A stretch of DNA of 21,489 nucleotides from an uncultured Methanosarcinaceae archaeon (GCA_963721455.1 CAVRJG010000034.1:1-21489); one strand, 5' to 3'; positions 1,289 to 21,051 are shown, counted from the stretch's first letter. The notes: generated by a model from the sequence alone, not told the origin. Program-made: numbers and translations.

Positions 1289-1438
1289 GGTTCTGGTGCA
1301 AAAATAATATTTCTGTAGTTTGAGACTATAATTCTTGCCTTTGTGTGTTATTTTTCCCTTGATGATATTGATTAAATTTCCGAATTATGAAGTTTTTCAC
1401 TGATTTTGCAACAAAGCCAGATTTTTTGCACCAGAACC
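1289..1438 (+). mobile_element. IS6-type MITE copy 1 (150 bp, subtype A1)
   Basis: TIR GGTTCTGGTGCAAAAA / TTTTTGCACCAGAACC; interior homologous to copies at 5222, 14320, 20364; no TSD. Confidence 0.9.
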
Positions 1439-1655
1439 CAAAACTTATACCATGGCTTCTTACCTCCAGGTACTTCTATGGTCTTCTGATTGATGAGCGT
1501 TTGAACCTGTGAAATGTTTATTGTAAGTTGTGTTGAGGTACTCTTTATCTTGCTCTGCATTATCAAGTTCTTTCTTTAATATTTTATTGCGCCTTTCCGA
1601 CTCTTCAGATCTGGCGCGCAGCTGGAGAAATTCCTTAAGGTCCGGTACTTTCGTT
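1439..1655 (-). pseudogene. Frameshifted second DUF536-like coiled-coil paralogue ending KKPWYKFW
   Basis: Minus strand: KEFLQLRARSEESERRNKILKKELDNAEQDKEYLNTTYNKH / frameshift / QVQTLINQKTIEVPGGKKPWYKFW; stop codon lost at the MITE end. Confidence 0.65.
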
Positions 1656-1704
1656 TAGTGAAGTAGATATATAAGCAAACATTAAGACTTATATTCAAAT
1701 AATC

Positions 1705-1950
1705 ATGTATACAAGTATTCTGATAGGAAAGTATACAAAAATATAATTAGGCAAATACACAAGTATACATACAAAAAAGCAGATTAAAGAGCTTACCCTA
1801 CATCTAAGTACAGAAAAATCTGAAAAAAGTATTGAACTCATCACTATATATTGCAAGCATTGACGTATACCTAAATGCAGGAATACTTGTATACCAACGG
1901 GCAGATACACAAGTATACCTAAATATAAGTATACAAGTATCCATAAATAC
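1705..1950. repeat. Two arrays of degenerate 8-bp repeats (consensus AAGTATAC); candidate parS/parC centromere and operator
   Basis: GTATAC at 1707, 1731, 1763 and 1865, 1889, 1913, 1929; within-array spacings 24, 32, 24, 24, 16 (all multiples of 8); directly upstream of parA. Confidence 0.75.
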
Positions 1951-1994
1951 TAATATTCAATTCTGTGTGATTTCGAAATAACTGAGGTGTACGC

Positions 1995-2759
1995 ATGGCA
2001 AAAATAGTAACTATTAACAATGTTAAAGGAGGCGTTGCCAAGACAACAACTGCCACAAATTTAGCTGCAGGGTTGGCTCGAAAAGGTAAACGGGTCTTAT
2101 TAATAGACTCCGATCCTCAAGCAAACGCATCCTTAAATCTGTATCCTGGACTAAGAGCAGAAAAAACAATCAAGGATTTGTTCCAGGGAACACCAATCAC
2201 AGAAGTAATTTCACCATCCGTAGAAACCGGATTGGATATTATCCCGTCTTGCCTGGCATTTTCAACAATTGAACTGGAACTAGCCGCACAACTTGCCCGA
2301 GAAACGTTTCTAAAAAGAGCACTGAAGCCTATCGAGAAAAATTATGACATTATATTAATTGATACCCAGCCATCAGTTGGAGTGATCCCAATAAATGCAT
2401 TGTGTGCAGCAAACGAGGTTATCATTCCAGTGCATGAGGCATATGCACTGGATGCGATGAGCCAAATGGTCAATGTTATACTGCAAGTCAAACAAGCACT
2501 GAATCCAGATCTTGTGATAGGAGGAATCCTACTGACAATGTATGATACAAGGACCACCCTGGCAAAAGAGGTCAGGGAACGGTTATTGAATAAATTCGGA
2601 ACAATTCTGTTCGAGACAACTATTCCGAGGAACATTCGGTTAGCTGAATGTCCAACTCACAAAAAATCAATTTTTGAGTACGCGCCTGAATCAGCAGGAG
2701 CAGTTGCATACCAAGCATTAACAGAAGAAGTTATAAAACGATGGGGGATAGTCAAATGA
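1995..2759 (+). CDS. parA: ParA/Soj family Walker-type partition ATPase (no N-terminal HTH)
   Basis: KGGVAKTT deviant Walker A, LLIDSDPQAN, YDIILIDTQPS, TMYDTRT, TIPRNIRLAE; GAGGTG RBS upstream. Confidence 0.95.
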   Translation: MAKIVTINNVKGGVAKTTTATNLAAGLARKGKRVLLIDSDPQANASLNLYPGLRAEKTIKDLFQGTPITEVISPSVETGLDIIPSCLAFSTIELELAAQLARETFLKRALKPIEKNYDIILIDTQPSVGVIPINALCAANEVIIPVHEAYALDAMSQMVNVILQVKQALNPDLVIGGILLTMYDTRTTLAKEVRERLLNKFGTILFETTIPRNIRLAECPTHKKSIFEYAPESAGAVAYQALTEEVIKRWGIVK

Positions 2760-3106
2760 GGACAGCTATAGGTAACACGACAATCGATGAAAACGACAAT
2801 ATAGGAGCTCTGCTGGGGCAGCAGCAAACGCAGGTTGAAAAAAACACAGCAAACCGGGAAGAAACGTCTGCAGTAGTAGGAAAAATGGAAAAGCAAGAAG
2901 AAAATATAGATGATGAAAAACTTAAGCACAACCGATCTGCCAAATTTACCGATTTGGATATCGAGCATTTAGAAAAAATAATGCTTGCGATCGGAACCGA
3001 TAAAGTCTCCAAGGCCCTTAGATGGTGTCTAGATAAGGCGTGGGAAACACATGGGGATGAAATTGAAAAGATAGCTGAGCAAAAAAAGAAGATCGGTACA
3101 CTCTAA
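2756..3106 (+). CDS. Putative centromere-binding partner of ParA (ParG/SegB-like, predicted C-terminal ribbon-helix-helix)
   Basis: ATG at 2756 overlaps parA stop (ATGA); low-complexity N-terminus then strand-helix-helix pattern NRSAKFTDLDIEHLEKIMLAIGTDKVSKALRWCLDKAW. Fold is inference. Confidence 0.6.
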   Translation: MRTAIGNTTIDENDNIGALLGQQQTQVEKNTANREETSAVVGKMEKQEENIDDEKLKHNRSAKFTDLDIEHLEKIMLAIGTDKVSKALRWCLDKAWETHGDEIEKIAEQKKKIGTL

Positions 3107-3163
3107 ATGTAAGTTCCTTTAACACCATAGACTAAGAAATAATCGAGCTGAATCATGGTTTTC

Positions 3164-3313
3164 GGTTCTGTTGCAAAAATAATTTTTCTACCCTTTTAGG
3201 CTATAATAATTTCTTTTTGTGTTATTATTGACCTGCTTATGGCATACTAAATATCCCATTTGTGATGTTTTTCACTGGTTTTGTAAAATAGCCAGATTTT
3301 TTGCAACAGAACC
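3164..3313 (+). mobile_element. IS6-type MITE copy 2 (150 bp, subtype A2)
   Basis: TIR GGTTCTGTTGCAAAAA / TTTTTGCAACAGAACC; interior closest to reverse complement of copy at 20903; no TSD. Confidence 0.9.
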
Positions 3314-3315
3314 AT

Positions 3316-3540
3316 TTAAAGCTTGAGTTCCTTAGCCATTTTTTGGAAAAACTTTCCCTTATCAGTGGTAATGATAAGCCCGTTTTCTTGTCTGGTGAGT
3401 TCTTTTTCGTTCAACATTTCCAGATATTTCTTGGCAATATTAGAGTTTAAATTTGCCTCGTATACAATATGAGTTTTCTTCGCCCCATTCATTGCTACTC
3501 TTAAAATGTCTATGACGATATCATTCCTGCTCCTTCTCAT
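3316..3540 (-). CDS. Small winged helix-turn-helix regulator (HTH_45 type), 74 aa
   Basis: MRRSRNDIVIDILRVAMNGAKKTHIVYEANLN..YLEML..ITTDKG; GGAGG RBS before ATG at 3540. Confidence 0.85.
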   Translation of the reverse strand: MRRSRNDIVIDILRVAMNGAKKTHIVYEANLNSNIAKKYLEMLNEKELTRQENGLIITTDKGKFFQKMAKELKL

Positions 3541-3644
3541 AATACTAACTCCTCCTACAGTGGATTCAAAAAAACAACTATAAAGGTTCGCCATTAATCG
3601 CAAAGGAATCTAATCCCCATAGACTTCGCAGTACCTAGATCAGT

Positions 3645-3770
3645 AACAACTACAATCCTTTTGTTGTAGTTGTTGTTTTACCGAAGACGAATTTACAGGT
3701 TTTAAGCTGGAGATTCGATAACGAAAGATGAACCACCTTCCTTTACGGTCTAATCTCCAGTTAAACGCCT
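3645..3770. other. Two stem-loops; candidate structured RNA or terminator
   Basis: AACAACTACAA (3645-3655) / TTGTAGTTGTT (3664-3674); AGGTTTTAAGCTGGAGATT (3697-3715) pairs imperfectly with AATCTCCAGTTAAACGCCT (3752-3770). Confidence 0.45.
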
Positions 3771-3796
3771 ACTGACATATTTTATCCTGCTCGAAT

Positions 3797-4204
3797 TCAC
3801 GCAGGAGCTTCTTTGTTCATGATATAAGCAACCATTCCAGGGTTAAGCTTGCTTTCCCTTGAAATCTTTGCTTCAATGTCCTCAGCGGATTTTCCTTCTA
3901 TTTTCATTTCCTTTATTTTTTCAGTCACTGAAGACGGAATGGTGTAATATTCGTTAATGTCCTTCCTGTGTCCCCAGACATCCCCTTCTATAAGCTGGAT
4001 TCTCTGCATTTCAAGGAACATCTCTATGGATTTTGAGACCGTAGCCATGTAAGACTTAGGTAACTGAATTACCTCAATTTTCGGGCAGGTTTCAACCAAT
4101 CCAAAAATGTCCTTGTTCGAAGGTCTGAAAGCCAGGTGAACAACACGTTCATTTGGATTTAATGTAAAGATTTCTTCTCTTGAACTAACTACTCGAATTC
4201 TCAT
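3797..4204 (-). CDS. DUF1699 family protein
   Basis: MRIRVVSSREEIFTLNPNERVVHLAFRPSNKDIF..EGDVWGHRKDINEYY, recognised Methanosarcinaceae family. Confidence 0.9.
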   Translation of the reverse strand: MRIRVVSSREEIFTLNPNERVVHLAFRPSNKDIFGLVETCPKIEVIQLPKSYMATVSKSIEMFLEMQRIQLIEGDVWGHRKDINEYYTIPSSVTEKIKEMKIEGKSAEDIEAKISRESKLNPGMVAYIMNKEAPA

Positions 4205-4997
4205 ATTTTTCCCCCACTATGAACTTCTTTTAATTTTACTTTGATATAAACTACATATACTGATTATAAATAATTATCTCATTGAACTAACATTATTTAG
4301 ATAGTTTTTTGGAGATGATGATTATATTAGATCTTCTAATTTGATCTAGAAAAGCCAAAGAAAGAATAATAACCGATCTTTACAATTTGTTTTTCTATTT
4401 TTGCTTCATTTCTGCTCTATTTAATTCCATAATTTTTTCTAAATACAGACTAATTATTCTTATTTTCGATCCCTTTCAATCTCAGACTTTAATGAGACCT
4501 TCCAACTTTTTGGGCGCATCAAAATAAGAAACTGAGAAATCAAATCCTTCCAGGGTCGATAGCTGCGTTTTGAAAATCTGTTTTTTGTAGCTCAAGCTAT
4601 GTAACGTAACTATTACATCCAATACAAAAGCAGTTAAAAAAGAGAGACGGAGCCAGACAGATAAATGGTCAAAGTCTGCCTGGAGTTTGAGAGTTTATTT
4701 TATTGGAAACAATAATATATTAACATCAAATTATTTAAACCCATATCTTTCATTGGATCATTAGTCATTCCTCTTTGATTTATCCGTCCTGGTCCAAAAA
4801 CTAAAGATTTCCTGCTCCTCTTGTTTCCATTCTTTTTCCATAAGTGATAATTCGTCTTCATTCATTCTCTATACCCCCCAAATTCATTAAAAAATTTGAT
4901 TAATTTCGTCCCATAGCTGTTTCACTTTTTCGATTCCTTCTATCCTAAATGAGCTTCAATCGCCAGATTAGACAATGCACCAAAATCATTCAGGACC

Positions 4998-5183
4998 TCA
5001 TGGACTTCCCTCATCCAGGGCTCTTTTTATGTCTGCGGCAGTTCCAAAATTTTTTAATGGAATTACGTTCTCGGCCACCTTGTTAATCTGGTCTCTCAAA
5101 AAAGCCAGGCTAACGGCTGAACCGTCTACAAATCCGTCTGAACCTGCGATAACCGTTTTAATAATTTTTGGAGTTGTAGGCAT
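4998..5183 (-). CDS. Small hypothetical protein (61 aa), possibly part of a decayed gene
   Basis: ATG-started ORF with protein-like composition; 5' region abuts MITE copy 3; no recognised motif. Confidence 0.3.
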   Translation of the reverse strand: MPTTPKIIKTVIAGSDGFVDGSAVSLAFLRDQINKVAENVIPLKNFGTAADIKRALDEGSP

Positions 5184-5221
5184 AATAAAGGATATTTCTT
5201 TCTTACATTATTACTTTTTTG

Positions 5222-5372
5222 GGTTCTGTTGCAAAAATAATATTTCTGCAATTTGAGACTATAATTCTTACCTTTATGTGTCATTTTTCCCGGTGATGAG
5301 AATGATTAACTTTCCTAATTGTGAAGGTTTTCACTGATTTTGCAACAAAGCCAGATTTTTTGCACCAGAACC
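5222..5372 (+). mobile_element. IS6-type MITE copy 3 (151 bp, subtype A1)
   Basis: GGTTCTGTTGCAAAAA ... TTTTTGCACCAGAACC; no TSD. Confidence 0.9.
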
Positions 5373-5510
5373 ATCATTTTCAGCCTACTCGAAAAAAGAA
5401 GACCCGTCTTCTTTATTGGCTCTTCGCTGTTTTGTATGGTGAGATAATAAAAATATGAAGACCAGAAAATAATAAAAAGTCTCTACTCTTTACTTATAAA
5501 TTTATAAACT

Positions 5511-7680: not shown

Positions 7681-7952
7681 GGTTCTGGTGCAAAAAATCT
7701 GGCTTTGTTGCAAAATCAGTGAAAAACTTCACAATTAGGAATTTAATCAATTTTAGGTCGTGGGTGTGAGTTATTGAAAACCGTAAACACAAGAATCTCT
7801 CTACATTTTCCTCAAATACAGGAGATGTACTCGCTTTTTCGGAATTGATCAATAACTCGTGTACACGACCCAATTTTATAAAGGCGAAAATAGTACACGA
7901 AGGTTAAAAATATGGTATCAAACTAAGTAAATATTATTTTTGCAACAGAACC
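7681..7952 (-). mobile_element. IS6-type MITE copy 4 (reverse), interrupted by a second MITE
   Basis: GGTTCTGGTGCAAAAAATCTGG ... ATTATTTTTGCAACAGAACC; 272 bp minus 115-bp insert and 8-bp duplication = 149 bp. Confidence 0.9.
7756..7870. mobile_element. Nested 115-bp MITE (IS1-like ends) with 8-bp TSD
   Basis: Imperfect 22-bp TIR GGTCGTGGGTGTGAGTTATTGA / TCAATAACTCGTGTACACGACC; TSD CAATTTTA at 7748-7755 and 7871-7878. Family inferred from GGT ends and TSD length. Confidence 0.85.
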
Positions 7953-8274
7953 TCTTATTCCATTAAGGAACCACTGAGGAAAAACTTACAGGTTCCTGAT
8001 TCCTGACTGCTTGTCTTCAAAAATTGAGGATATTTATCTTTAAGTGAGTTGAGAAGCTTGTCCAAATGAGTATAGTTAAAAAATGAGAATTGTGACGTGT
8101 CTTGTCGTCTGACATGCATAGACACACATCTATCTAACTATACAGAAAACAGCGATTTTTCCCGAAAAGCTCCGGAAAGAGTCACCAACGGCATTGTATT
8201 AGGGTGAGCTTGTGTCTGTCTTAATTCCATTTTATGGATCTTCACTGTTTTGAGGTGAGTAAAAATAATATCTA

Positions 8275-8393
8275 TAGGACTTATGCATTTGAGGTACAAA
8301 ATTAAGTACGATAAACACTGTGGTTTAAATTTTCATTTTGGACAGATAAAGGTCCAACACTATTGATTTTTCATTTCAACTGCGTAAATCTTA
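8275..8393 (-). mobile_element. TAGGACTTACGCA-type MITE, degenerate copy (119 bp)
   Basis: TAGGACTTATGCA ... TGCGTAAATCTTA; aligns along its length with the reverse complement of 9685-9802. Confidence 0.8.
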
Positions 8394-8426
8394 TAATTGT
8401 AAAATAAACCGTATTTCAAGCTAATC

Positions 8427-8795: not shown

Positions 8796-9065
8796 TTAAA
8801 CCTCCACATTGCTCATAATTATGTATACTCCATTCTTTCTAACCATAGTTTTATTGTTTTTGTGGGCCATGTACACCTTTGAAAACCCTCTAACTGTTGT
8901 CTTTTTTAAGCCCGCGTTTTGTGCGACGTCTGAATACAACATACCTGTCAGCGCTTCGAATGGTCGAAATTTCCTGATTTTATCTTTTGCGGATTCCTTC
9001 AAAGGCAGGTTTTCGAGCTCAACGCCGTTCAACACTTCCTGGTATGCAAGAAGAAGACTACTCAT
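8796..9065 (-). CDS. Hypothetical protein translationally coupled to recombinase (89 aa; may continue by frameshift to 8636)
   Basis: ATG at 9065 overlaps recombinase TGA; an overlapping frame 8809-8636 (MWRFKSAEWTGLTPSSEVSFLLNADNKLRIKQV..) continues downstream. Confidence 0.55.
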   Translation of the reverse strand: MSSLLLAYQEVLNGVELENLPLKESAKDKIRKFRPFEALTGMLYSDVAQNAGLKKTTVRGFSKVYMAHKNNKTMVRKNGVYIIMSNVEV

Positions 9066-9640
9066 ATTAAAATCCCCCATTCTGTAAGTCTCTTCTTAAT
9101 GTCCCGTAGCTCATAGTCTGTAAAGGAAAGGCTCTGGTAGTGCTTTAGAGAGGTCACAGGGTCATGTCCTTGTCTGGAATAAATCTCAATTTCTGGAACT
9201 CCTGTTTTTAGCATCCAGCTTTCAATTGTTTTCCTGGATGTCTTTGTTCCTACTTTTGGGCTTATCTCTGCTTTCTCTGACCACCTGGCAAGATCCTTAT
9301 TCCAACTTGATCTATAAGGTGGTTTCTTACCATCAATAAAATGTGAAAACACGTAAGAGAAAGTTGAAGGCAATTTATCAATAGTCCTTTTAGGGAGCTT
9401 TTGCTTTTCCTTTTTCTGTGCTTCCTTAGGCAGTATTATCTGATTTCTTTCTTTGTAGTACCATTGAGGATTTTCATAGAGTCTTTGAAGCTCGATGTAT
9501 CGAAGGCCTGTTATTGTGTTAATCTCAAAAATAGCTTTCATTGATTCAGGAATGGCATTTATAAACCTATTATATTCCTCTACAGTTAGGACCTTGGTTC
9601 CATCTGCAGTAACTAATCCATTTTCCATGAAGAAGATCAT
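9062..9640 (-). CDS. Minimal tyrosine recombinase/integrase (catalytic domain only)
   Basis: TGLRYIEL (Arg I), KTSRKT (variant HxxR), QGHDPVTSLKHY (His and catalytic Tyr); ~190 aa, no N-terminal core-binding domain. Confidence 0.85.
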   Translation of the reverse strand: MIFFMENGLVTADGTKVLTVEEYNRFINAIPESMKAIFEINTITGLRYIELQRLYENPQWYYKERNQIILPKEAQKKEKQKLPKRTIDKLPSTFSYVFSHFIDGKKPPYRSSWNKDLARWSEKAEISPKVGTKTSRKTIESWMLKTGVPEIEIYSRQGHDPVTSLKHYQSLSFTDYELRDIKKRLTEWGILI

Positions 9641-9684
9641 AGCTACAAAATATTAAAAGGTAGCTGTTTTTAGCTTATATATTA

Positions 9685-9802
9685 TAGGACTTACGCAGTT
9701 GAGCTGAGAAATCAATAGCATTAAACCTTCAACTGTCTAAAATATGAATTCAACCACAACTCCTGTTGTACGTGATTTTGTACTTCAAGTGCGTAAGTCC
9801 TA
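9685..9802 (+). mobile_element. TAGGACTTACGCA-type MITE (118 bp)
   Basis: Perfect 13-bp TIR TAGGACTTACGCA / TGCGTAAGTCCTA (near-perfect to 18 bp), TA on both sides. Confidence 0.85.
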
Positions 9803-9965
9803 TATTAGTTTACTAGCCTAGAAAATTAGCTTAAAATCAAAGAAATGGCTACGTTTTATGTAGAAACGTAGCTATCAGAAAAAAAACAATAACTTACATC
9901 TTATGTTTAGGGTGGCGTGTGTTATACCAAAAGATTAAAATGGTACGCCACCCATATTCAGCATC

Positions 9966-10976
9966 ATGGAACCTTTAAGGTATAAACTTGAATCAGAGAA
10001 GTCCGAGAATAGATCCACTAAGTATTTCCTGGTGCGCTATATTTCATTTAAGGGAAAGAATAGCAGGGTGAGACAATATTTGGGCACCACTGAGCCTACT
10101 TCTGAAGCTCTAGAAAAAGCCATTAGAGACTACGCTTATGACTCTTGAATTGAAAGCTGCTGAGAAGAGTAGCTGATATGGCTTACTCTTATTACACGGT
10201 AGATTATCTTGGTCAATCAGAAATTAAGAAAATAGAGAAGCTTCGATTCCTCCACAATTCATACATTTCATCGCTCAACAAAATAGAGCTTGAAGTCTAT
10301 ACACAGCAGACGAAAATTTGTATATCCATGGCACTACTGCAATAGAAGGAAACACATTGTCATTGCAGGAAACGCACTATCTCTTAAATGAAGAGATTGT
10401 GCCAAAAGAAAAATCTTTGAGAGAAATAAATGAGGTTCAAAATTACAAATATGTAATGGCTTATGTGGAACAGTACAAGGGTAAAGTAAATCTGCAGTTT
10501 ATTCGAAAATTGCACTCTTTGATAATGAATAATATTGACATGCGTTTCGAGAGTCCGGGAACTTTCAGACGGCACAACCTTGTCTATATAGGTGGTTGTG
10601 ATCTAAGCGTTACGCTTGCTAATATGATTGAGGTCGATTTGAAGGATCTAATTAACGAGCTATTATGATGCCATTAAGAATAAAAAGCATCCTTTCGAGC
10701 AGGCTATATTGTTTCATTACAAGTTTGAATTGATCCGTCCCTTTTCTGATGGTAATGGAAGAACTGGACGTGAAGTTTTGAATTATCTTCTGAAAGAAAG
10801 AAGGGTATCCACAACTGATTATCCCAAAAGAATCTAGGGAAGCATATATTTCAGCCCTGACATCAGGCAATAATAATCAAAATGTGAGAATGATAAAGGT
10901 CTTTAGCGATCTAATGCTTGCAGGTTACGCAAAAGAGTTGGCCGACCTTAGAAACATTGTTGTCCCTGTAAAATGA
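9966..10976 (+). pseudogene. Fic family protein, multiply frameshifted
   Basis: Pieces 9966-10148, 10318-10668 (IHGTTAIEGNTLS..IRKLHSLIM) and a further frame with [28 protein letters not shown]. Confidence 0.85.
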
Positions 10977-10994
10977 AAAAACTAACTCGACAAC

Positions 10995-11102
10995 AAACCT
11001 TCACAATTAGGGAAGTTAATCATTCTTATCCCCGGGAAAATGGCACACAAATGTAAAAATTATAGTATCAAAATGCGGAAATATTATTTTTGCAACGGAA
11101 CC
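10995..11102 (-). mobile_element. IS6-type MITE copy 5 (reverse, truncated, one TIR)
   Basis: AAACCTTCACAATTAGGGAAGTTAATCATT ... ATTATTTTTGCAACGGAACC matches A1 interior; about 40 bp with the other TIR missing. Confidence 0.85.
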
Positions 11103-11218
11103 CATTAATCAATTGTTTGGTATAGTTTTATAATGTTGGTACATTTTCCTTGAATATTTTGATTTTTATTCATTACTTATAGATTTACATATTTTTTTGA
11201 ATTTTTTGCAACGGAACC
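11103..11218 (-). mobile_element. IS6-type element end, subtype B
   Basis: Ends TTTTTTGCAACGGAACC; reverse complement aligns with 16718-16832 (TCAAAATATTCAA..ATTATA(A/G)AACTAT..CCAAA(C/T)AATTGATTAAT). Confidence 0.75.
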
Positions 11219-11950: not shown

Positions 11951-11975
11951 ATCACTCTCTGAAGACAAAAATATT

Positions 11976-12163
11976 CATTGGTCATCGGTTAAGGAATTTT
12001 CTTGTCCATAGGTATCGATTTCGAAGCAAAAATTAATCCCAAATTTTGAGCACTGAAACTGAAATCGATATCCAATTCTAACTTCACATCAATGAATACT
12101 TTGAAAAACTTTGTGGAAATCGATGTAATTTGTCACGATTCCTCACTTAACCAAAGACGCATG
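11976..12163 (+). mobile_element. IS4-like (CAT-ended) MITE, 188 bp, 10-bp TSD
   Basis: CATTGGTCATCGGTTAAG ... CTTAACCAAAGACGCATG; TSD CAAAAATATT at 11966-11975 and 12164-12173; homologous to 17148-17333. Confidence 0.88.
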
Positions 12164-12302
12164 CAAAAATATTAAGTAACTGCAGAAAGCAATGTTATCT
12201 GATAAAATATTATTATTTTCCAAAATATCTCCTTATTTTCCTGCAGAATATTGGGCCAGAATTCTGTAATCAGTATGCTTATTCGCTGTTTTTTATCTTT
12301 AA

Positions 12303-12321
12303 TAGGACTTACGTGGTTGAG
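12303..12321 (+). mobile_element. Orphan end of TAGGACTTACGCA-type element
   Basis: TAGGACTTACGTGGTTGAG vs TAGGACTTACGCAGTTGAG at 9685; no partner end found. Confidence 0.5.
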
Positions 12322-14319: not shown

Positions 14320-14469
14320 GGTTCCGTTGCAAAAATAATATTTCTGCATTTTGACACTATAATTTTCGCCTTTTTGTATCATTTTCTCCCGAATGAAAAT
14401 GATTAAATTTCCTAATTGTGAAGGTTTTTACTGATTTTGCAACAAAGCTAGATTTTTTGCAACGGAACC
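14320..14469 (+). mobile_element. IS6-type MITE copy 6 (150 bp, subtype A1)
   Basis: GGTTCCGTTGCAAAAA ... TTTTTGCAACGGAACC; no TSD. Confidence 0.9.
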
Positions 14470-15405
14470 TCTCCCTACCAATATAACCGTAGAAATTGTT
14501 CGGAAAACACTTGATCAATCTTTGGACTAATTTATTTACTGTTTCTGTGCCCCCAGCTCAGTATATGATTCAGCTTCTGCTTTGAGCATATTTTTTATTA
14601 TTGACTCATCTGAATGAGGGAAAATCCGGCAGAAATCCTGGCAGTATTTTATCCTCTTAACATAAAAAGAGTCATCTTCCAACCCTGCGTTAGCTAATTC
14701 CATTTCAAAATCCTGACACCAATTAAAAATACTTTGTGTTAGAACGGGAATGAATTTATCAGCGTCCGTAACGGATTTTATATGACGGAGGAACAATACT
14801 TATTATCATGTTCCACGCTTTTTCCCACTTTTCCATTCCATCTCTGTAATTCCGGTTTTCAATATCTTCATAGCCTTCTTGCATTAAATCATCAATCATT
14901 TCCATATTGCATTTTTCTGGAATTATTCGGTTCCATAATTCTATTATTGCTAACCAGATAAAATCTTCATCCTGGTCTTGTGCATGAAAATTCTGTGTGT
15001 AATAATGATCTTCTGCTAACTGAATTGCAGAGATATAATTTTGAGCCTGTTTTTTGAAACGTTCTATTTCAAAATCGATATGCATTGATTCCAATTTTTC
15101 AATTATTTCCGAAGTGCTCATCTTTCTTACTTTATTAAGATTCCAGCCTCTTAGAATGAAATCTTTGAAGCTTATATCCTTGTCATCAGAGTATTTTTCA
15201 ATTTCTTTGCCAATTTTTTCCAATTGTTTGGGATTTCCTGTAATTTTTGTTCAAATCTCATAATGGCTAACCGACTAATAACTGGTTCTTCGGATTTCGA
15301 AGTGGTTCTATTTATAGTGGCTACTTTGCTACCTAAACAACAATTTTTATATTTTTTGCCTGAACCACATGGGCACGGATCATTTCTACCAATTTTCTTT
15401 GACAT
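14470..15405 (-). pseudogene. SEC-C motif protein, frameshifted and 3'-clipped at MITE
   Basis: [23 protein letters not shown] then overlapping pieces 15405-15172, 15223-14759, 14796-14536 in different frames. Confidence 0.85.
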
Positions 15406-15629
15406 TCTAATTAGCTATTTTGTTTTTTGCCATTATAATTTTTTCGGTTTGATGGCATAATATTCGCTCGATGCAGCAGTGTGCAGTAAACGATATCAAT
15501 CAGCACTAATAAAAAGTGCCTATGTATTTCTCATAGAATTTTTGCATTTACTGGGACACGTATCGAAGGCAAAAATATACTTGTTTTTGAAAAAGCCTTG
15601 ATAGATAGCGTTTTTAAAAATCTAGTTAC

Positions 15630-15705
15630 ATAGTCTTTGGAATAAAATAAAACTCAAACGCATAGCAGTCATCAGCCGATAGCGATTTTAAAAGACGAGT
15701 AAACA
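15630..15705 (+). repeat. 76-bp diverged direct repeat, copy 1
   Basis: Gap-free alignment with 17013-17088, about 55/76 identical by hand; blocks AAACGCATAGCAG, AGCCGAT, CGAGTAAACA. Confidence 0.7.
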
Positions 15706-15865
15706 AGAGATCACTAGATATAAAGAAAAATATTAGGTTTTAGAACCACATTTATAAAGTGAATTATTGAGGGTAATAAGCTCCAGGCAATTTTTGCTAA
15801 TATTGTGAAATATGTTATGATTTATTATATTTTGTTGTCATCTGTAAGACTTATTTTCCTTGCAG

Positions 15866-15961
15866 TAATTGATCAATTATTTGGGACCTAGTTCTATAAA
15901 TTGATCTTTGTTCATTATCCATAGGTTTACGTGCTTATTCTGAGATTTTTGCAACGGAACC
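15866..15961 (-). mobile_element. IS6-type element end, subtype B (internally deleted)
   Basis: Reverse complement GGTTCCGTTGCAAAAAATCTCAGAATAAGCACGTAAACCTATGGATAATGAACAAAG.. matches 16718 copy. Confidence 0.75.
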
Positions 15962-16084
15962 ATTTTAAGTACCATCTCACATTTAATAAGATAATTTCAC
16001 CGACAAAGTGCTTCCATTTAAAGGAATTTACTGGCATAACATATACTCCTACATTTCTATTATTTCAGTAAATTCCTATCATAA

Positions 16085-16102
16085 TTTTTTTGCAACGGAA
16101 CC
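16085..16102. mobile_element. Orphan IS6-type TIR
   Basis: TTTTTTTGCAACGGAACC, 141 bp after previous end, same orientation; interior unlike A or B. Confidence 0.7.
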
Positions 16103-16171
16103 TAATTATACATAGCCACTCTATTCCCAAAAATGTTATAATTTGCTTAATATTTAAATGGAGGTGTTTTG

Positions 16172-16648
16172 ATGAGAAAGGTTGTAACTTTACTAACTGT
16201 TTTATTGGTGCTTTTAACACCAATAAACACTGTGGCTGCAAAGCCTTGGTTGGAATCCTTAGTAAATGAGTATAATAATGCTGTAGAAGAAGTTTTCTGG
16301 TGGAGTTCCCTTAGGGATTCTATTTCGATAGGAGGAACTATTCAGGATATAGCACTACGGGCAGTTGAAGATTATAGGTCAATTTCTTTAGAAGAAAATA
16401 GAAAATATACGGTAAAAAGGCTATTGATGACATGGTTTTACTTAATAAACTTGCATATCAAGTCAATGCAAGTCCAAAAGTGAAATTGGCATTAAGTGCT
16501 GCTGCTCTATTGAAACACATAAAAGCAAGTTCAAACCTAAAAGCAGCTGAAAAAAGAGCTAAGAAAATACTACCCTTATGATGCTAAACGAATAATTGAT
16601 GGTCTTTCAGGTTATGGTGGCGGCGGAGGATCCTCCGGGACCTGGTAA
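16172..16648 (+). pseudogene. Frameshifted secreted protein with Gly-rich C-terminus (GLSGYGGGGGSSGTW)
   Basis: GGAGGTG RBS, signal peptide MRKVVTLLTVLLVLLTPINTVAA; reading continues in two other frames (AIDDMVLLNKLAYQVN.. and YYPYDAKRIIDGLSGYGGGGGSSGTW*). Confidence 0.6.
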
Positions 16649-16677
16649 AAATACATCGTTGCCTAACAGTTGAAGAG

Positions 16678-16715
16678 AAAAGCCTGTGCATGAATAGATT
16701 ATGACAGGCTTTTTT
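16678..16715 (+). terminator. Hairpin plus T-tract terminator candidate
   Basis: AAAAGCCTGT ... ACAGGCTTTTTT, 30 bp after the stop at 16648. Confidence 0.55.
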
Positions 16716-16717
16716 AA

Positions 16718-16832
16718 GGTTCCGTTGCAAAAAATCTTAGATAAGCATGAAAATTTATGGATAACAAACAAAAGTCAAAATATTCAAAAAGATTTATTCC
16801 TATTATAGAACTATTCCAAATAATTGATTAAT
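16718..16832 (+). mobile_element. IS6-type element end, subtype B
   Basis: GGTTCCGTTGCAAAAAATCTTAGATAAGC..; no matching right TIR seen. Confidence 0.75.
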
Positions 16833-17012
16833 ATATTTAGCTTCATTAAGAACAGAGTAATTTAAATTATTAATTTGTCTTTTGCTTGTGCTTTTTCCAT
16901 TTGATACATATTTCTAAATATCTTCTTATACACTTATCGTGGGGTAATCGATAGATAAAATACCATCACCAATATATCAAGCCTACTGCTAACGGTTTTG
17001 ATAACCCTGTCT

Positions 17013-17088
17013 ATAGTCTATGGAATGACTATTTACCTAAACGCATAGCAGACTTTAGCCGATGACGTTTATTTTAGTCGAGTAAACA
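17013..17088 (+). repeat. 76-bp diverged direct repeat, copy 2
   Basis: Aligns without gaps to 15630-15705. Confidence 0.7.
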
Positions 17089-17147
17089 GAATTAGAGAAA
17101 ATTGAGTTTTTTGTTCATATAATTAATATTATTCTTGTGTAAATATC

Positions 17148-17333
17148 CATTGGTCATCGGTTAAGGATTTTGGGCTGCTGATCTCGATTTCGACGAAAAA
17201 AGTCAAGCCCAAATGTTTAGGGCTTAAATTGAAATCGATATCAGATTCCAGCTTTACATTGATGGAATAATTTAACAAATTTTATGAAAATCGATGCAAT
17301 TGATAACGATTTCTCCTTAACCGATGACCAATG
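17148..17333 (+). mobile_element. IS4-like (CAT-ended) MITE, 186 bp, 10-bp TSD
   Basis: Perfect 20-bp TIR CATTGGTCATCGGTTAAGGA / TCCTTAACCGATGACCAATG; TSD TGTAAATATC at 17138-17147 and 17334-17343. Confidence 0.92.
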
Positions 17334-17436
17334 TGTAAATATCTAATTATATGTTAGTTAATTAGTGTTACTTTTGCTCGTGTTTTTGCGTAAGATTGAT
17401 GTTTTTGATATAAAGGAAAGATTCACTTTAATTCTA

Positions 17437-18692
17437 GTGCATCGATTCCATACTTCTTGAATACAAATTAATATAATACTTTGATTATAATAATATTTAT
17501 GGGTCGTATAAGCCGCCGTTCCAAGTTATCACTCACTAGAGAAGAAGAAGATTACTTGATTAAGTTAAGTAATTCCAGAAGTCAATCAGCAAGCCTTGTT
17601 GAACGAGCTAAAATTGTGCTTTTAAGCTTTCAGGGAATAAACGATACTGAAATCTCTCTGGAATTAAACGTTGCTTACAATACCGTAAGAACTCGAATAC
17701 GAAGAGTTTTGGATTTTGGAGTTAGAGAAAGCCTGAAGGATAAAATCGGAGGTGGAAGACCAAGAACGATTACAGACGAATCTCGTGCATGGATGATCAA
17801 GGTTGCATGTATGAAACCAAAAGATTTTGGGTATCCACATGAAATATGGACACAGAGACTCTTAACTAAATATGTGCAGAAAAACTGTGTCAAGGAAGGA
17901 CATCCTGAATTATCAAAGATAAGTCAGGGAACGATTTCAAAAATCTTGAATGCAAGTAGCATAAAACCACATAAAATCAAGTATTACACCGCCAAAGTGG
18001 ACCCAGATTTTGATGAAAAGGCAACGAAAGTTTTGGGCACATATAAAGAAGTTAAAAAACTAAAAAAGAAAATTAAAAAAAAGAAAACGTTAGATAGAGC
18101 AATATTTTCATGTGATGAAAAAACAGGTATTCAAGCTATTGGGAATAAGTATCCAGATCTGATGCCAGTACAAGGAAAATATCCTAAGATGGCAAGGGAT
18201 CATGAGTATATTAGACATGGTACTCTTTCATTATTTGCTTGTACGGATCTGATTACTGGGAAAGTTCATCACAAAGTTTTTGAAAAAAATAGAAGTCGTG
18301 AGTTTATTGAGATTTTGAAAGAAATAATTTCAGATTACCAGGATACAAAAATAGTCGTGATTCTTGATAACTACATAATACACATATCAGAAGAAACTAA
18401 AAAATATCTAAGTACCTTGAAAAAGGGAAAGTTAAAGTTCGTATTCACACCAATACATGGAAGCTGGTTGAATATTATTGAAAGTTTCTTCAGCAAAATG
18501 ATTAGAAGCTTTTTAAGGGCAATAAGAGTAGAATCTGTAGAGGAATTGAAGGATAGGATTGCTCAATACATAAATTTACTCAATGAGGAACCTGTGATAT
18601 TTATGTGGAAATATAAAGTTGAAGAAAAAGATAAGATTCCTGGTGGAATTACGATCTGAAAAAAATATGCAATTAATTTGGAATCGATGCAC
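17437..18692 (+). mobile_element. IS630 family insertion sequence
   Basis: TIR GTGCATCGATTCCA / TGGAATCGATGCAC, flanked by TA duplication; reconstructed target ATTCTAGAAT is palindromic. Confidence 0.93.
17499..18659 (+). CDS. IS630 family transposase (single ORF, 386 aa)
   Basis: N-terminal HTH (ERAKIVLL..GGGRPRTIT..WTQRLL), DDE triad FSCDEKTG / VVILDNY / SWLNIIESFF; ATG at 17499. Confidence 0.95.
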   Translation: MGRISRRSKLSLTREEEDYLIKLSNSRSQSASLVERAKIVLLSFQGINDTEISLELNVAYNTVRTRIRRVLDFGVRESLKDKIGGGRPRTITDESRAWMIKVACMKPKDFGYPHEIWTQRLLTKYVQKNCVKEGHPELSKISQGTISKILNASSIKPHKIKYYTAKVDPDFDEKATKVLGTYKEVKKLKKKIKKKKTLDRAIFSCDEKTGIQAIGNKYPDLMPVQGKYPKMARDHEYIRHGTLSLFACTDLITGKVHHKVFEKNRSREFIEILKEIISDYQDTKIVVILDNYIIHISEETKKYLSTLKKGKLKFVFTPIHGSWLNIIESFFSKMIRSFLRAIRVESVEELKDRIAQYINLLNEEPVIFMWKYKVEEKDKIPGGITI

Positions 18693-18757
18693 TAGAATAT
18701 CACTGCTATATTTTAGCAGTACTTGATGTATAATTCCATGAATATTTTCTGCAGATT

Positions 18758-18792
18758 AAAAAAGAAGAAGTTCCCTAAAAAGGAAACTTCTT
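18758..18792 (-). terminator. Hairpin plus T-tract downstream of S-layer fragment
   Basis: AAGAAGTTCC ... GGAAACTTCTT imperfect stem; T-run follows on the minus strand. Confidence 0.5.
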
Positions 18793-18811
18793 TAAAACGG
18801 TTTTCAAATCA

Positions 18812-19066
18812 TTACTCTAAAGGGGGCAGTTGAATAGTCTCAGTTGTTACTTTATCGTCTATGTCGTAATCGAATGCCGCAAACTGTGTAGCGTCGACTT
18901 TTAAGTCTTCACCGTTACCCTGGACGTCGATAATATTATCAATATCTGAACCATCGAATACTGGGCCTCTTATTTCTACTCCTTGAGCTGCTGCAGGTCC
19001 TATAATCATAAACATAATTGTTATAGAAAGACAGAATGCCGTTATCTGCCTATAAAATGCTTTCAT
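18812..19066 (-). pseudogene. N-terminal fragment of Methanosarcina S-layer-type (DUF1608) protein
   Basis: GGAGG RBS, signal peptide ending PAAA, then VEIRGPV..ATQFAAFDYDIDDKVTTETI; stops after 84 aa. Confidence 0.75.
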
Positions 19067-19420
19067 TTTCCATTCCTCCTAATTTTTCCATTACATTTTA
19101 ACTTAATTTACTCACCTTAAATATTCATATATTGGATTAATTCCCGTTTTTGTTAGTTTATTTTTTATGCTAACATTCATAAATTCTTGTATGATGTAGC
19201 TAAATTTTATGAACGTCCTTTGTTTTCTCAACAACTGCCCAAATAAATTATTATTGGTGTGAACTTCATTAAGTTTTATACTCACTCCGTGAGTTGTTGT
19301 GAATAAGGTGGCTTCTTCATTTCCGGGATAATATTAACATTGGGCCCTCTCGCATATTATCCCGGCCTCCGTTTGAGTATTCTGTAGATCATTTTTATTG
19401 TGTATTTTATAGAACTCGAA

Positions 19421-19554
19421 GAAGAAACAGAATCAATCAACGAGTTAGAAACCGATTAATTCACTTTTCTTTTTTTATTTCCTTTTTGTGCTATCATCAG
19501 CTCCGGATCCGCACAGGCCTGGCTGGATCTCAGGTTAAAATCAGTGAGTAAAGG
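19421..19554 (+). repeat. Duplicated gene end + T-tract + GC-rich motif, copy 1
   Basis: Encodes EETESINELETD* then TTCACTTTTCTTTTTTT and GCTCCGGATCCGCACAGGCCTGGCTGGAT; homologous to 20233-20363. Confidence 0.85.
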
Positions 19555-19989
19555 CTTTTCCTGATTGGAGAATAAAACAAGTGTTCAGGGGCTTGCACAA
19601 GGTATAGGTGTAAAAACTACATTGTGTGGACACGGTAGTTTCTTGCACAAGCCCGATGGATAATAAAATGGGATAATTGAAAAACTTTTCTTTTTGGCTT
19701 GGTAATACAGTTGGTTTACCATCCTCTACAGGGCTGGAAATGCAGGAAAAGAAGTTACAATTATTGTACATGGAGATAAGAAGGACGATGACGAAAAAAA
19801 CGAAACTGCTTAAAAACACAATAGAACCCTTCACTGTTACGTTTTGGGCTGTCGTGGTTTGTTATGGCTGTTTTCGGGCTACTATTGGGACGGAAGAAGG
19901 CACACTGATAATCGGGAAAAAAGAAAAAAGGCAGGAAAACTTAACATGCTGGTAGAACGAATTAAAGAGTTAAAAGGGGAGTGGAATGT

Positions 19990-20271
19990 ATGACTAAAAT
20001 GACTCTAATCGAAGCACTTGAAAAACTCGCATTAATCAAAAAAAACGGACTCGATACACTGATCCAAATTCAAGATAGTAAAAATGAACCTATTACAATT
20101 ATTGAGGCAATTGAAGCTATTAGGAACGATGCTATAGACATTTATGAAGCTGATAATTATGTCATAAGTGGTGACGGAATCCAGAAAGTAGGGGATGACG
20201 GATATCTAGGCGATATTGTATATCGAGTTAAAGACGAAACAGAACCGATCAATGAAATGGAAAACGATTAA
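19990..20271 (+). CDS. Acidic hypothetical protein (~93 aa)
   Basis: ORF with purine-rich RBS-like sequence, followed by T-tract; its C-terminus has a paralogous relic at ~19400-19459. Confidence 0.65.
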   Translation: MTKMTLIEALEKLALIKKNGLDTLIQIQDSKNEPITIIEAIEAIRNDAIDIYEADNYVISGDGIQKVGDDGYLGDIVYRVKDETEPINEMEND

Positions 20272-20363
20272 TTCACTTTTCTTTTTTTCCTTTTTGCGCC
20301 ATCCATCCGCTCCGGATCCGCGCAGGCCTGACCGGATAACATGCTATAATCAATAAGTAAAGG
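20233..20363 (+). repeat. Duplicated gene end + T-tract + GC-rich motif, copy 2
   Basis: DETEPINEMEND*, TTCACTTTTCTTTTTTT, GCTCCGGATCCGCGCAGGCCTGACCGGAT; homology ends at the MITE. Confidence 0.85.
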
Positions 20364-20511
20364 GATTCCGTTGCAAAAAATATTTCTGCAATTTGACACT
20401 ATAATTTTTACCGTTATGTGTCATTTTCGCTCGAATGAAAATAATTACCTTTCCGAATTGTGATGGTTTTTACTGATTTTGTGAAAAAGCCAGATTTTTT
20501 GCAACGGAACC
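20364..20511 (+). mobile_element. IS6-type MITE copy 7 (148 bp, subtype A1)
   Basis: GATTCCGTTGCAAAAA (one substitution) ... TTTTTGCAACGGAACC; no TSD. Confidence 0.88.
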
Positions 20512-20553
20512 CTATCTTTGGTTTTCTTTTTATTTTGTTGTATCATTAGAAAG

Positions 20554-20572
20554 GATTTTTTGCAACGGAACC
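20554..20572. mobile_element. Orphan IS6-type TIR
   Basis: GATTTTTTGCAACGGAACC, 61 bp after copy 7, same orientation. Confidence 0.7.
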
Positions 20573-20625
20573 AATTTGAGAACCACTCCTCTATTACGGT
20601 TTTCAGTAACTGATCGCTATGACCC

Positions 20626-20902
20626 TTATTTCCAGGCCTTCAGTTTCAAGCTCTCCACAGGCAGGCATCCACACCGCCTTTCGCTTATATCTAAATCTTC
20701 AGATAAAATTTCAACTGAAAATCCGGCTTTTTCCAAAAGTCTGAGATACTCTTCTTTTAATAACGCACCTGCAATACAGCCTGCCAGCATGTCTTTGTCG
20801 TTTTTCAGGTATTCAGGAAGCTCGGCCAGAAGAACCATGTCTGAAATGTACATTCTTCCCTTTGGCTTCAGGACCCGAAAGGCTTCACTGAATACTTTTT
20901 CC
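20626..20902 (-). pseudogene. arsM: 3' fragment of arsenite S-adenosylmethionine methyltransferase
   Basis: [47 protein letters not shown]; 5' part replaced by MITE at 20903. Confidence 0.8.
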
Positions 20903-21051
20903 GGTTCCGTTGCAAAAAATCTGGCTATTTTACAAAATCAGTGAAAAACATCACAATTGGGATATTAAGATGTTATAAACAGGTCAATAATGGTACAAAA
21001 AGCAATCTTTATAGCCTAAAAAGGCAGTAAAATTATTTTTGCAACGGAACC
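20903..21051 (-). mobile_element. IS6-type MITE copy 8 (reverse, 149 bp, subtype A2)
   Basis: GGTTCCGTTGCAAAAAATCTGG ... ATTATTTTTGCAACGGAACC; no TSD. Confidence 0.9.

Follow-up and report, generated by a model that had tools for sequence, protein, structure and literature searches.

The repeats that punctuate the window (the whole 21,489-nucleotide stretch of DNA analyzed here, from an uncultured Methanosarcinaceae archaeon) are probably MITEs of about 150 bp that carry the terminal inverted repeats (TIRs) of an IS6/IS26-family insertion sequence (IS) of Methanosarcinaceae and are mobilized in trans, the window being a pile-up of such events. What is new is an IS6-family MITE in Methanosarcinaceae, not a proven gene-shuffling machine. 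The common ends, the partner IS, one 8-bp target-site duplication (TSD) and the breakpoint junctions are directly established.

A pattern search of the window found 20 ends of the type GGTTCYGKTGCAAAAA, of which 19 are exact and one, at 20364, has a single mismatch; 100 dinucleotide-preserving shuffles gave a mean of 0.08 and never more than one. The first-pass annotation had reported 20 MITE-type ends, and all its coordinates were right. A profile built from six of the window copies and run with nhmmer recovers eight copies there (the one at 7681-7952 as two halves): six complete MITEs, one enlarged to 272 bp by a nested insert, and one truncated (Table 1). The length of about 150 bp first ascribed to the copies holds for the six complete ones (148-151 bp) but not for the 272-bp copy, in which roughly 120 bp of nested sequence (7753-7873), itself bearing a 25-nt inverted repeat, separates the two halves. 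As the definition of a MITE has it, these elements are small, non-coding, TIR-bounded and present in many copies (eight in the window). No protein-family or transposase match was found inside any MITE copy; the lone ORF of at least 80 aa that touches one (4975-5256) extends over no more than 35 nt at the start of the 5222 copy and has no Pfam match.

Five further ends (11218, 15961, 16102, 16718 and 20572), initially taken for orphan MITE ends, all proved to be termini of decayed full-length IS6 elements. The window thus holds 13 elements in 21.5 kb, eight MITEs and five IS stubs, whose strands run + + + - - + + + - - + - - along it. Beyond the 16718-16886 relic, as far as about 17101, the sequence is more weakly homologous to an IS relic in another locus (L064). 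The earlier statement that the window has no IS6 transposase is correct for an intact gene but not for remnants, because the first 26, the last 26 and the last 9 codons of such genes persist. Since all local IS copies are dead, none of the window's elements is autonomous.

Table 1. MITEs, IS6 relics and gene remnants in the window
Feature	Position	Strand	Details
Complete MITE, 150 bp	1289..1438	+	both ends GGTTCTGGTGCAAAAA; nhmmer E 1e-42, profile positions 1-150
Complete MITE, 150 bp	3164..3313	+	subfamily with GGCTATAA interior; both ends GGTTCTGTTGCAAAAA
Complete MITE, 151 bp	5222..5372	+	end search, profile
MITE, 272 bp	7681..7952	-	two half matches, profile positions 75-150 and 1-82
Truncated MITE	10995..11102	-	profile positions 1-108; left TIR directly adjoins IS6 relic from 11104
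IS6 relic, right end	11104..11218	+	IS positions about 742-857; right TIR; last 9 transposase codons
IS6 transposase, last 9 codons (INQLFGIVL)	11104-11130	+	homology
Complete MITE, 150 bp	14320..14469	+	93% identity with copy in locus L082
IS6 relic, right end	15868..15961	+	IS positions about 742-857; TIR adjoins interior of 15962..16102 relic
IS6 transposase, first 26 codons	15960-16037	-	homology
IS6 relic, left end	15962..16102	-	IS positions 1-142; left TIR; first 26 transposase codons
IS6 relic, right end	16718..16886	-	IS positions 688-857; last 26 transposase codons
IS6 transposase, last 26 codons	16806-16883	-	homology
Complete MITE, 148 bp	20364..20511	+	left end GATTCC; right TIR adjoins IS6 relic from 20513
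IS6 relic, left end	20513..20572	-	IS positions 1-60
Methyltransferase gene fragment	20626..20937	-	Methyltransf_31 profile positions 88-145 of 145 only
Complete MITE, 149 bp	20903..21051	-	92.6% identity with L014 copy; flanks 6/8

The assignment of the ends to the IS6/IS26 family was borne out by comparison with the published 14-bp IS6 consensus GGTTCTGTTGCAAA, which includes G1, G2, G7 and G10 (PMC6807381). The 20 window ends match it at 14/14 (four ends), 13/14 (15 ends) or 12/14 (one end), and the GGTTCTGTTGCAAAAA ends of the 3164-3313 copy match at 14/14. A DDE_Tnp_IS240 transposase between the same TIRs, which the first-pass annotation had proposed looking for, was found in full-length ISs of related Methanosarcinaceae genomes. 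Nine loci (L029, L036, L042, L056, L063, L068, L074, L075 and L034) have TIRs in inverted pairs that span 853-870 bp, a length inside the family range of about 700-890 bp. An intact 234-aa transposase ORF is present in L063 and L036, and tblastn aligned residues 1-234 in one piece in L036, L042, L056, L063 and L068, all Methanosarcinaceae loci with an autonomous IS that has the MITE's ends. The protein scores 162 bits against PF13610 (DDE_Tnp_IS240) and 283 bits against NF033587 (IS6; cut-off 125). A hallmark of the family is one DDE transposase, about 210-240 aa long, that contains a DDE_Tnp_IS240 domain, and this is what the partner IS encodes.

The partner IS is of bacterial type, since its transposase shares about 65% of its residues with IS6 transposases of Bacillus and Alicyclobacillus (64-65% with plasmid-borne ones of Bacillus mycoides, B. 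toyonensis, Alicyclobacillus and Priestia). Its IEQDHRSIK motif fits the signature E-DH---K and its TIR has G10, both of which characterize the bacterial IS6 group (PMC6807381). The notion of an "archaeal IS26 analogue" therefore survives as regards the IS6/IS26 family but not as regards an archaeal type. The archaeal-type "IS6" elements (ISH14, ISPfu1, ISMja1, ISC774 and others in Table 5 of PMC6807381, excerpts of which show no Methanosarcina entry) share with the partner IS the family label, small size and, in many members, GG tips. Unlike it, they have transposases at most 25% identical to the bacterial ones, E--F---K-R in place of E-DH---K, and TIRs without G10 (PMC6807381).

The partner IS resembles the IS240-like ISs of the Bacillus cereus group and its relatives in length, in its single 234-aa DDE_Tnp_IS240 transposase and in sequence; the clade V members IS240A and ISBwe2 are 861 and 863 bp long, each encoding 235 aa (Harmer & Hall 2019). 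The GGTTCTGGTGCAAAAA TIR is identical at 16/16 positions to that of an 859-bp IS of Bacillus bingmayongensis (L045). None of the nine partner ISs shows a TSD, and likewise an excerpt of Table 4 of Harmer & Hall (2019) records one for none of the five Bacilli clade V entries in it. In contrast to these Bacillus ISs, the partner IS has a Methanosarcina-like archaeon as host and is accompanied by an abundant 150-bp MITE with which it has the TIR alone in common. Beyond the terminal 16-18 bp or so, the MITE has nothing in common with any of the nine ISs. It thus did not arise from them by simple deletion, and the type I definition of a MITE, which makes the interior a deleted form of the parent IS, was rejected.

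The MITE profile matches 55 of the 123 fetched loci: 48 of the 64 labeled Methanosarcina or Methanosarcinaceae, seven with other labels, and none of the remaining 52. MITE-bearing loci are nearly all Methanosarcina-like. Among the matches listed, the 20-mer of the genome scan finds MITE left ends and some IS ends only, eight of them exact in the window. Forty-five of 49 copies are 148-153 bp long, with TIRs of about 16-17 bp, and there are at least three subfamilies. Copies differ by 24% on average and the TIRs are almost invariant; interior blocks such as CTATAAT, CCTAATTGTGA and TTTTGYAA are conserved across subfamilies. ISfinder names two IS6-family MITEs, MITEBth2 and MITEHarch3 (PMC6807381), of 227 and 336 bp (PMC7986276). 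Compared by description only, these too are non-autonomous, with IS6-type ends and no transposase, but the present family differs from them in length, in its subfamilies and in its Methanosarcinaceae hosts.

The shared ends suggest that IS copies elsewhere in the genome supply in trans a transposase that binds them. Judging by family membership, the MITE would have moved by a replicative, cointegrate-forming route, as described for the IS6 family (PMC7986276), cutting its target with an 8-bp stagger. If an event between molecules is resolved, an 8-bp duplication would remain; events within one molecule, and recombination between copies at a later time, would leave none and could put ends against truncated genes or sister elements. 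The copies may also have had a part in moving the genes between them.

A perfect duplication of 8 bp, the TSD length of the IS6 family (PMC7986276), borders one of the 49 MITEs (L014, CATACTTG; 0.04 expected) and is the sole direct trace of an IS6-type insertion; two more have 6/8 flank matches (0.52 expected). TSDs of any kind are lacking in the other 46 MITEs and in 9/9 ISs, the distribution of matches is close to the shuffled null, and among lengths of 3 to 10 bp none but 8 bp gives any score. In the window no reciprocal 8-bp flank pairs were found (best 6/8), and flank pairs of at least 7/8 number 4/1340 within genomes and 21/9245 between them, so intramolecular events are not directly documented. 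Of 167 distinct ends, 18 adjoin a further IS6 or MITE segment; the junctions fall at many IS coordinates, and three of them lie in the window. The count is to be read against a soft null, as 10.8% of bases in the seed-centred loci are IS6 or MITE. Further ends lie within 2 kb in 18 of 32 loci. Evenly scattered simple insertions, which the first-pass annotation had named as one refuting case, are thus not the pattern. Near the right-hand end of the window a methyltransferase gene is cut by the MITE end at 20903, and its fragment, lying between that end and the IS6 relic end at 20572, marks a breakpoint. Ends set against truncated ISs and genes are at most an indirect trace of a replicative route; together with the clustered ends, they fit IS6/IS26-style rearrangement.

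IS26 copies cluster, usually lack TSDs, and have ends that adjoin truncated genes and sister copies. The window's elements share these traits, and the family, with the IS26 pseudo-compound transposons and translocatable units of Enterobacteria. Unlike those, however, the units of the window have no transposase, their passengers are ordinary accessory genes and pseudogenes, and no compound-level duplication was found in the window.

Do the MITEs, alone or with ISs, nevertheless act as IS26-like translocatable units or pseudo-compound transposons, so that captured and stacked modules form a cassette platform? We consider this unlikely. The family assignment on which it was built is right, and the scarcity of TSDs and the clustering of elements count in its favor, though the clustering is compatible with insertion beside an existing copy rather than proof of it. 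Two modules are bounded by three direct-orientation MITEs (1289, 3164 and 5222), same-orientation IS stubs (15962-16102 and 16718-16886) flank 615 bp with a small secreted-protein ORF, and the interval 20573-20902, bounded by an IS end on one side and a MITE end on the other, contains a gene fragment. In other genomes, four of the window's gene sets have homologues no more than 2 kb from a MITE (L026 and L061 for HTH_45 plus DUF1699, L053/L054 for the integrase, L014 for the pentapeptide protein and L074 for the LTD protein), but such homologues exist for only five of the 23 window ORFs and fragments, among loci chosen for holding a MITE. The flanks give no support to capture and stacking: an 8-bp duplication flanks no pair of window ends (best outer-flank match 6/8). 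An IS26-type pseudo-compound transposon was rejected on the same ground, the direct pairs (1289/3164/5222; stubs 16102 and 16718) having no outer 8-bp duplication. Orientations are mixed and no more ordered than chance, several modules are pseudogenes, and the window has no intact transposase gene. Targeted conservative movement of IS26 depends on transposase made by the copies that take part, and a MITE can provide none. Moreover, because the stretch also contains an IS630 element and repeats of three further families, tolerance of insertions explains the density of elements without capture. We regard as improbable, too, a version in which a MITE driven in trans by an IS6 transposase of bacterial origin forms, with the adjacent gene module, a translocatable unit that inserts beside other copies, with the window as a growing cassette array; if true, MITE-dense stretches would correspond, in archaea and with a non-autonomous element, to the resistance islands of IS26.

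It is quite unlikely that the copies are ordinary simple insertions whose 8-bp duplications have since decayed, with density owed to age and to tolerance in a junk region, and ends without rearrangement. The excess of one perfect and two 6/8 duplications over expectation, the 24% average difference between copies and the pseudogenes of the region all speak for it. However, presumably young copies (93-99% nearest-neighbor identity) score 0-5/8, L014 excepted, and flanks match at the null level even though the TIRs are almost invariant. Simple insertion would not, moreover, leave ends flush with ISs and a gene that have been cut short.

Domestication, in which the elements are kept by selection as regulatory or structural units (small RNA, promoter or terminator) rather than by transposition, is very unlikely. 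It would account for the conserved interior blocks and the intergenic position of the copies, but RNAalifold finds no conserved fold beyond the TIR stem in 45 copies, and therefore no sign of a structured RNA; an Rfam search gave no match. Copies also lie in both orientations relative to adjacent genes, and some are nested in dead ISs. Least credible of all are attC-like sites used for cassette exchange by the tyrosine recombinase within the array: fixed repeat length, conserved inverted ends and variable interiors would suit them, but the same ends bound full-length IS6 elements with a DDE transposase, copies occur in both orientations, the short recombinase reaches 21 bits where the XerA/integron-integrase model has a cut-off of 220 and is flanked by a different repeat, and the ends, read by eye, do not appear to fit the attC core motifs. 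An integron (attC array plus IntI) was accordingly rejected.

The genes between the elements include several that had been listed as modules and are in fact broken: the Fic gene is split over three frames, the SEC-C protein gene is split, and of the methyltransferase the last third alone remains. As pseudogenes, the IS630 element and other small repeats are also there, the window looks like a permissive, accessory stretch, partly decaying. An ORF of 192 aa for a Phage_integrase-family recombinase lies at 9062-9640, flanked by a separate repeat of about 125 bp. The first-pass annotation overlooked an intact IS630-family IS at 17431-18698, and the same stretch has small repeats of at least three further families.

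The end sequence GGTTCYGKTGCAAAAA occurs 20 times in the 21,489-bp window when up to two mismatches are allowed (19 sites are exact and one has a single mismatch), against a mean of 0.08 and a maximum of 1 in 100 dinucleotide-preserving shuffles. All the end and copy coordinates given in the first-pass annotation proved correct. Are these ends the terminal inverted repeats (TIRs) of IS6-family elements, as was claimed? For 65 short IS6/IS26 members from bacteria, Harmer & Hall 2019 (PMC6807381) report the end consensus GGTTCTGTTGCAAA, in which G1, G2, G7 and G10 are conserved; archaeal elements termed "IS6", they state, have ends without G10. Four window ends match this bacterial consensus at 14/14, 15 at 13/14 and one at 12/14, and G10 is present in every one of the 20, which bears out the family assignment.

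Copies of the miniature element (MITE) in the window were defined by alignment and by a profile built from six copies; stubs of the partner IS described below were identified by tblastn, blastn and an IS profile. Seven complete copies of about 150 bp had been proposed. Six stand, but the one at 7681 is interrupted by a nested segment of some 120 bp (7753-7873), itself bounded by a 25-nt inverted repeat (7753-7777 / 7849-7873); the 22-nt end of this insert has no exact match among the at least 123 loci listed by the scan described below. The five ends classed as orphans were correctly placed, but all five belong to stubs of partner-type ISs. For the stub at 16718-16886, weaker homology to an IS relic in locus L064 extends to about 17101. 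In total the window holds 13 IS6-type elements and no live IS6-family transposase gene; the earlier statement that the transposase is absent thus holds for a working gene, although first or last codons survive in stubs. The window is a dense graveyard of the MITE and its partner IS.

IS6-type elements, stubs and junctions in the window (IS positions are coordinates of the partner IS)
Feature	Position	Strand	Basis or extent
Complete MITE	1289-1438	+	alignment and profile; complete copies 148-151 bp
Complete MITE	3164-3313	+	alignment and profile
Complete MITE	5222-5372	+	alignment and profile
MITE of 272 bp, two halves around nested insert	7681-7952	-	alignment and profile
MITE, cut short	10995-11102	-	profile positions 1-108
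IS6 stub	11104-11218	+	IS positions ~742-857; last 9 codons
Complete MITE	14320-14469	+	alignment and profile
IS6 stub	15868-15961	+	IS positions ~742-857; right end
IS6 stub	15962-16102	-	IS positions 1-142; first 26 codons
IS6 stub	16718-16886	-	IS positions 688-857; last 26 codons
Complete MITE	20364-20511	+	alignment and profile
IS6 stub	20513-20572	-	IS positions 1-60; left end
Complete MITE	20903-21051	-	alignment and profile
End-to-element junctions	11102/11104, 15961/15962, 20511/20513		

Genome collections were scanned with the 20-mer GGTTCYGKTGCAAAAAWAWY, a pattern restricted to MITE left ends and a subset of IS ends, with 8 exact sites in the window. The scan returned at least 123 loci, here given L numbers; all counts from it are lower bounds. 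Among the loci listed, which do not include the window itself, 64 are labelled Methanosarcina or Methanosarcinaceae and the others include Bacillus and Ectobacillus. Nine of them (L029, L034, L036, L042, L056, L063, L068, L074 and L075) have inverted ends 853-870 bp apart, and L063 and L036 have an intact 234-aa ORF between the same TIRs as those of the MITE. This ORF matches PF13610 (DDE_Tnp_IS240) at 162 bits, the very transposase that the first-pass annotation had proposed to look for; its score of 283 bits with NF033587 ("IS6 family transposase") clears the cut-off of 125. By tblastn, residues 1-234 align in one piece in L036, L042, L056, L063 and L068 and in shifted, broken pieces in L029 and L074/L075, with fragments in other loci; among the matches listed, transposase-like sequence is found in 21 of the 64 Methanosarcina-labelled loci. 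The IS6 assignment of the MITE, with its partner IS identified, is solid, and the MITE is a real, well-defined element of this family.

The partner transposase is 64-65% identical to IS6 transposases of Bacillus mycoides, B. toyonensis, Alicyclobacillus and Priestia plasmids; of the best 5000 plasmid records, 212 are at 60-80% identity and 4788 below 60%. Its motif IEQDHRSIK corresponds to the bacterial E-DH---K signature in PMC6807381, where archaeal and bacterial IS6 transposases share at most 25% identity. The roughly 65% identity to Bacillus-type transposases, together with this signature, shows the partner IS to be of bacterial type; it is resident in an archaeal lineage. Its size class matches that of the IS240-like clade V in the same paper (IS240A, 861 bp/235 aa; ISBwe2, 863 bp/235 aa). 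Of 8000 candidates scored in a protein search, at least 7705 are relatives at E <= 1e-40. Identity is 78-97% across the best 120, most of which have 234 aa and one of which is named "IS6 family transposase" from Methanosarcina sp. UBA5, so annotation pipelines already recognise this protein. L063/L064 (CAVSHT010000004.1, about 80.8-87.7 kb) is another dense cluster, in which an intact IS, a single MITE and a further five ends share about 6.8 kb. Among the proteins listed, at least seven distinct transposase variants, 93-94% identical, are linked to this contig, and the IS therefore appears to be multi-copy in that genome.

How widespread is the MITE itself? Its profile matches 55 of the 123 loci listed: 48 of the 64 labelled Methanosarcina, seven labelled otherwise and none of the remaining 52. 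Of the complete copies, 49 are distinct and 45 of these measure 148-153 bp; pairwise identity in the set of 49 averages 76.6% (range 58-99%), and at least three interior subfamilies are common to different genomes. The window copies at 14320 and 20903, for instance, are 93% and 92.6% identical to copies in L082 and L014, respectively. MITE and partner IS are alike only over some 16-18 terminal bases, and an origin of the MITE by internal deletion of the IS was rejected, since its interior has no similarity to the nine ISs above. A structured RNA or tRNA is likewise rejected (no Rfam or ARAGORN match; in 45 copies RNAalifold predicts the 16-pair TIR stem and nothing else), as is an integron, on the recombinase profile score. 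No match to the MITE was found by blastn in plasmid or phage collections. Left and right TIRs carry the same variant in 33 of the 49 copies (shuffle mean 22.4, maximum 32), from which we conclude nothing because shared descent of subfamilies explains it.

The seven loci labelled otherwise (L010, L012, L015, L021, L034, L058 and L105, of which L034 also has a full IS) lie on contigs binned as Falkowbacteria, Ignavibacteria, Bacillota, Fibrobacterota or Methanobacteriota. The Falkowbacteria assignment of L010 is likely a binning error, since the closest named relatives of its Thi4 gene are from Methanosarcina (79% to Methanosarcina sp. Kolksee). L058 has ends at 56-60% GC around a segment of some 2.4 kb that holds two MITEs and has a GC content of 27-39%, which could reflect a chimera or a transfer. 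Inverted pairs of the 16-mer end, 56-145 bp apart, were seen in L013, L044, L050, L062, L067, L096, L098/L099 and L107, which come from Ectobacillus, Bacillus, Bacilli and Bacillota MAGs, Alicyclobacillus, Liquorilactobacillus, Marinisporobacter and a cyanobacterium. According to PMC6807381 and PMC7986276, the IS6 family was represented in ISfinder by only two MITEs, MITEBth2 and MITEHarch3 (227 and 336 bp). Such MITEs may be commoner in bacteria than these two entries imply; none of the bacterial pairs matches the interior of the Methanosarcina MITE.

IS6-family transposition is replicative and prone to adjacent deletions, and leaves an 8-bp duplication only after resolution. The family forms cointegrates, as stated in PMC7986276. 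Among the 49 MITEs, one (in L014) has a perfect 8-bp duplication, CATACTTG, and two more match at 6/8; for the remaining 46 the flanks agree at 0-5 of 8 positions, near the level of the shuffled null (0.04 expected at 8/8 and 0.52 at 6/8). Among duplication lengths of 3-10 bp, none but 8 bp scores. MITEs with 93-99% nearest-neighbour identity, which should be recent because of their close relatives elsewhere, lack duplications except for that in L014, and none of the nine full-length ISs has one. A comparison with a candidate empty site, provided by paralogous gene tails at 19419-19554 and 20231-20363, showed homology ending at the 20364 MITE with no resumption beyond it. (These tails are 74-86% identical and lie downstream of small ORFs, and the second ends exactly at the MITE.)

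Taking the listed Methanosarcina loci and the window together, 18 of 167 distinct ends directly adjoin another IS6 or MITE segment. These junctions lie at many IS coordinates and recur near 47-62, in five cases, and near 707-742, in three. A methyltransferase gene stops at the MITE end at 20903, which leaves only profile positions 88-145 of 145. Among the Methanosarcina-labelled loci listed that have full 2-kb flanks, 18 of 32 have at least one further end beyond the seed element. Taken together, the rare duplications, abutting ends, cut gene and clustered ends fit the pattern expected of the IS6 family. Reciprocal 8-bp flanks were rejected as traces of inversion or recombination: the best match between window ends is 6/8, and matches of at least 7/8 are no commoner within genomes (4 of 1340 pairs) than between them (21 of 9245), one of the four being the L014 duplication and another a low-complexity A/T run. 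Many MITE and IS ends directly follow an A-rich run ending in G (AAAAAGG, GTAAAGG, CAAAAG), and the five independent junctions at IS positions 47-62 sit just upstream of the transposase start codon; these features may reflect a target preference, or MITEs inactivating their own helper IS.

Does the window assemble gene modules, as the first-pass annotation proposed? Intact genes include those for ParA, an HTH_45 protein, DUF1699, Kup, a pentapeptide protein and the IS630 transposase described below. The Fic gene, however, is spread over three frames (10294-10976), the SEC-C-motif gene is in three pieces (14536-15414, minus strand), the methyltransferase is a stub and the recombinase is only 192 aa long. 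What the first-pass annotation called a hydrolase is an intact 441-aa protein without a family match. Element orientations are mixed along the window. Of the 23 ORFs or fragments of the window, only 5 have a homologue close to a MITE in another genome, in loci that were chosen for having a MITE. DUF1699 and the integrase share 73-87% protein identity with Methanosarcinaceae MAG loci, to which nucleotide identity is 79-81%; with the presence of DUF1699 itself, these values indicate a host genome like that of Methanosarcina. An insertion-tolerant region explains the MITE density as well as a capture platform does; gene shuffling by the MITEs is a hypothesis with which some traces are compatible.

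IS6/IS26 elements are best known for building antibiotic-resistance regions in bacteria. What is seen here is a bacterial-type IS6 lineage established in Methanosarcina-like archaea, with an abundant MITE split into subfamilies. The pair offers a system in which to ask whether IS6-type rearrangement acts in trans on ends that lack a transposase, and whether such rearrangement shapes the accessory regions of methanogens. For annotation, it accounts for unannotated 150-bp repeats and orphan ends and marks gene-truncating breakpoints. Our literature search turned up no description of either an IS6-type MITE or an IS6 element from Methanosarcina; the text of the 2021 review (PMC7986276) does not contain "Methanosarcina", nor that of the 2019 paper (PMC6807381) "methano". 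A 2024 census (PMC11602168) places Methanosarcina spelaei among the archaeal genomes richest in MITEs, and the present family may already be within its bulk sequence list.

Several other mobile or repeated elements lie in the window. An intact IS630-family IS (17431-18698, 1268 bp), missed by the first-pass annotation, has 33-nt inverted ends that are 85% complementary and encodes a 392-aa transposase (17481-18659; DDE_3 and HTH_32; NF033545 at 205 bits). Just past the decayed IS6 relic is a second MITE-like element of 186 bp (17148-17333) with perfect 20-nt inverted ends, CATTGGTCATCGGTTAAGGA; a relative at about 11975-12144 has one end only. A palindromic repeat of about 125 bp is present in two and a half copies (8273-8397, 9680-9807 and a partial one at 12293-12321), the first two inverted around the tyrosine recombinase gene (9062-9640, 192 aa). 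This pair and the recombinase may together form a recombinase-borne element, or else a segment capable of inversion; in L014 (2150-2476) the repeat sequence adjoins a MITE, without a recombinase gene. Finally, an open frame on the plus strand (21020-21487), truncated on the left side where the MITE ends at 21051, runs past the window end; it has no Pfam or NCBIfam match and, by eye, may resemble the C-terminal region of a transposase.
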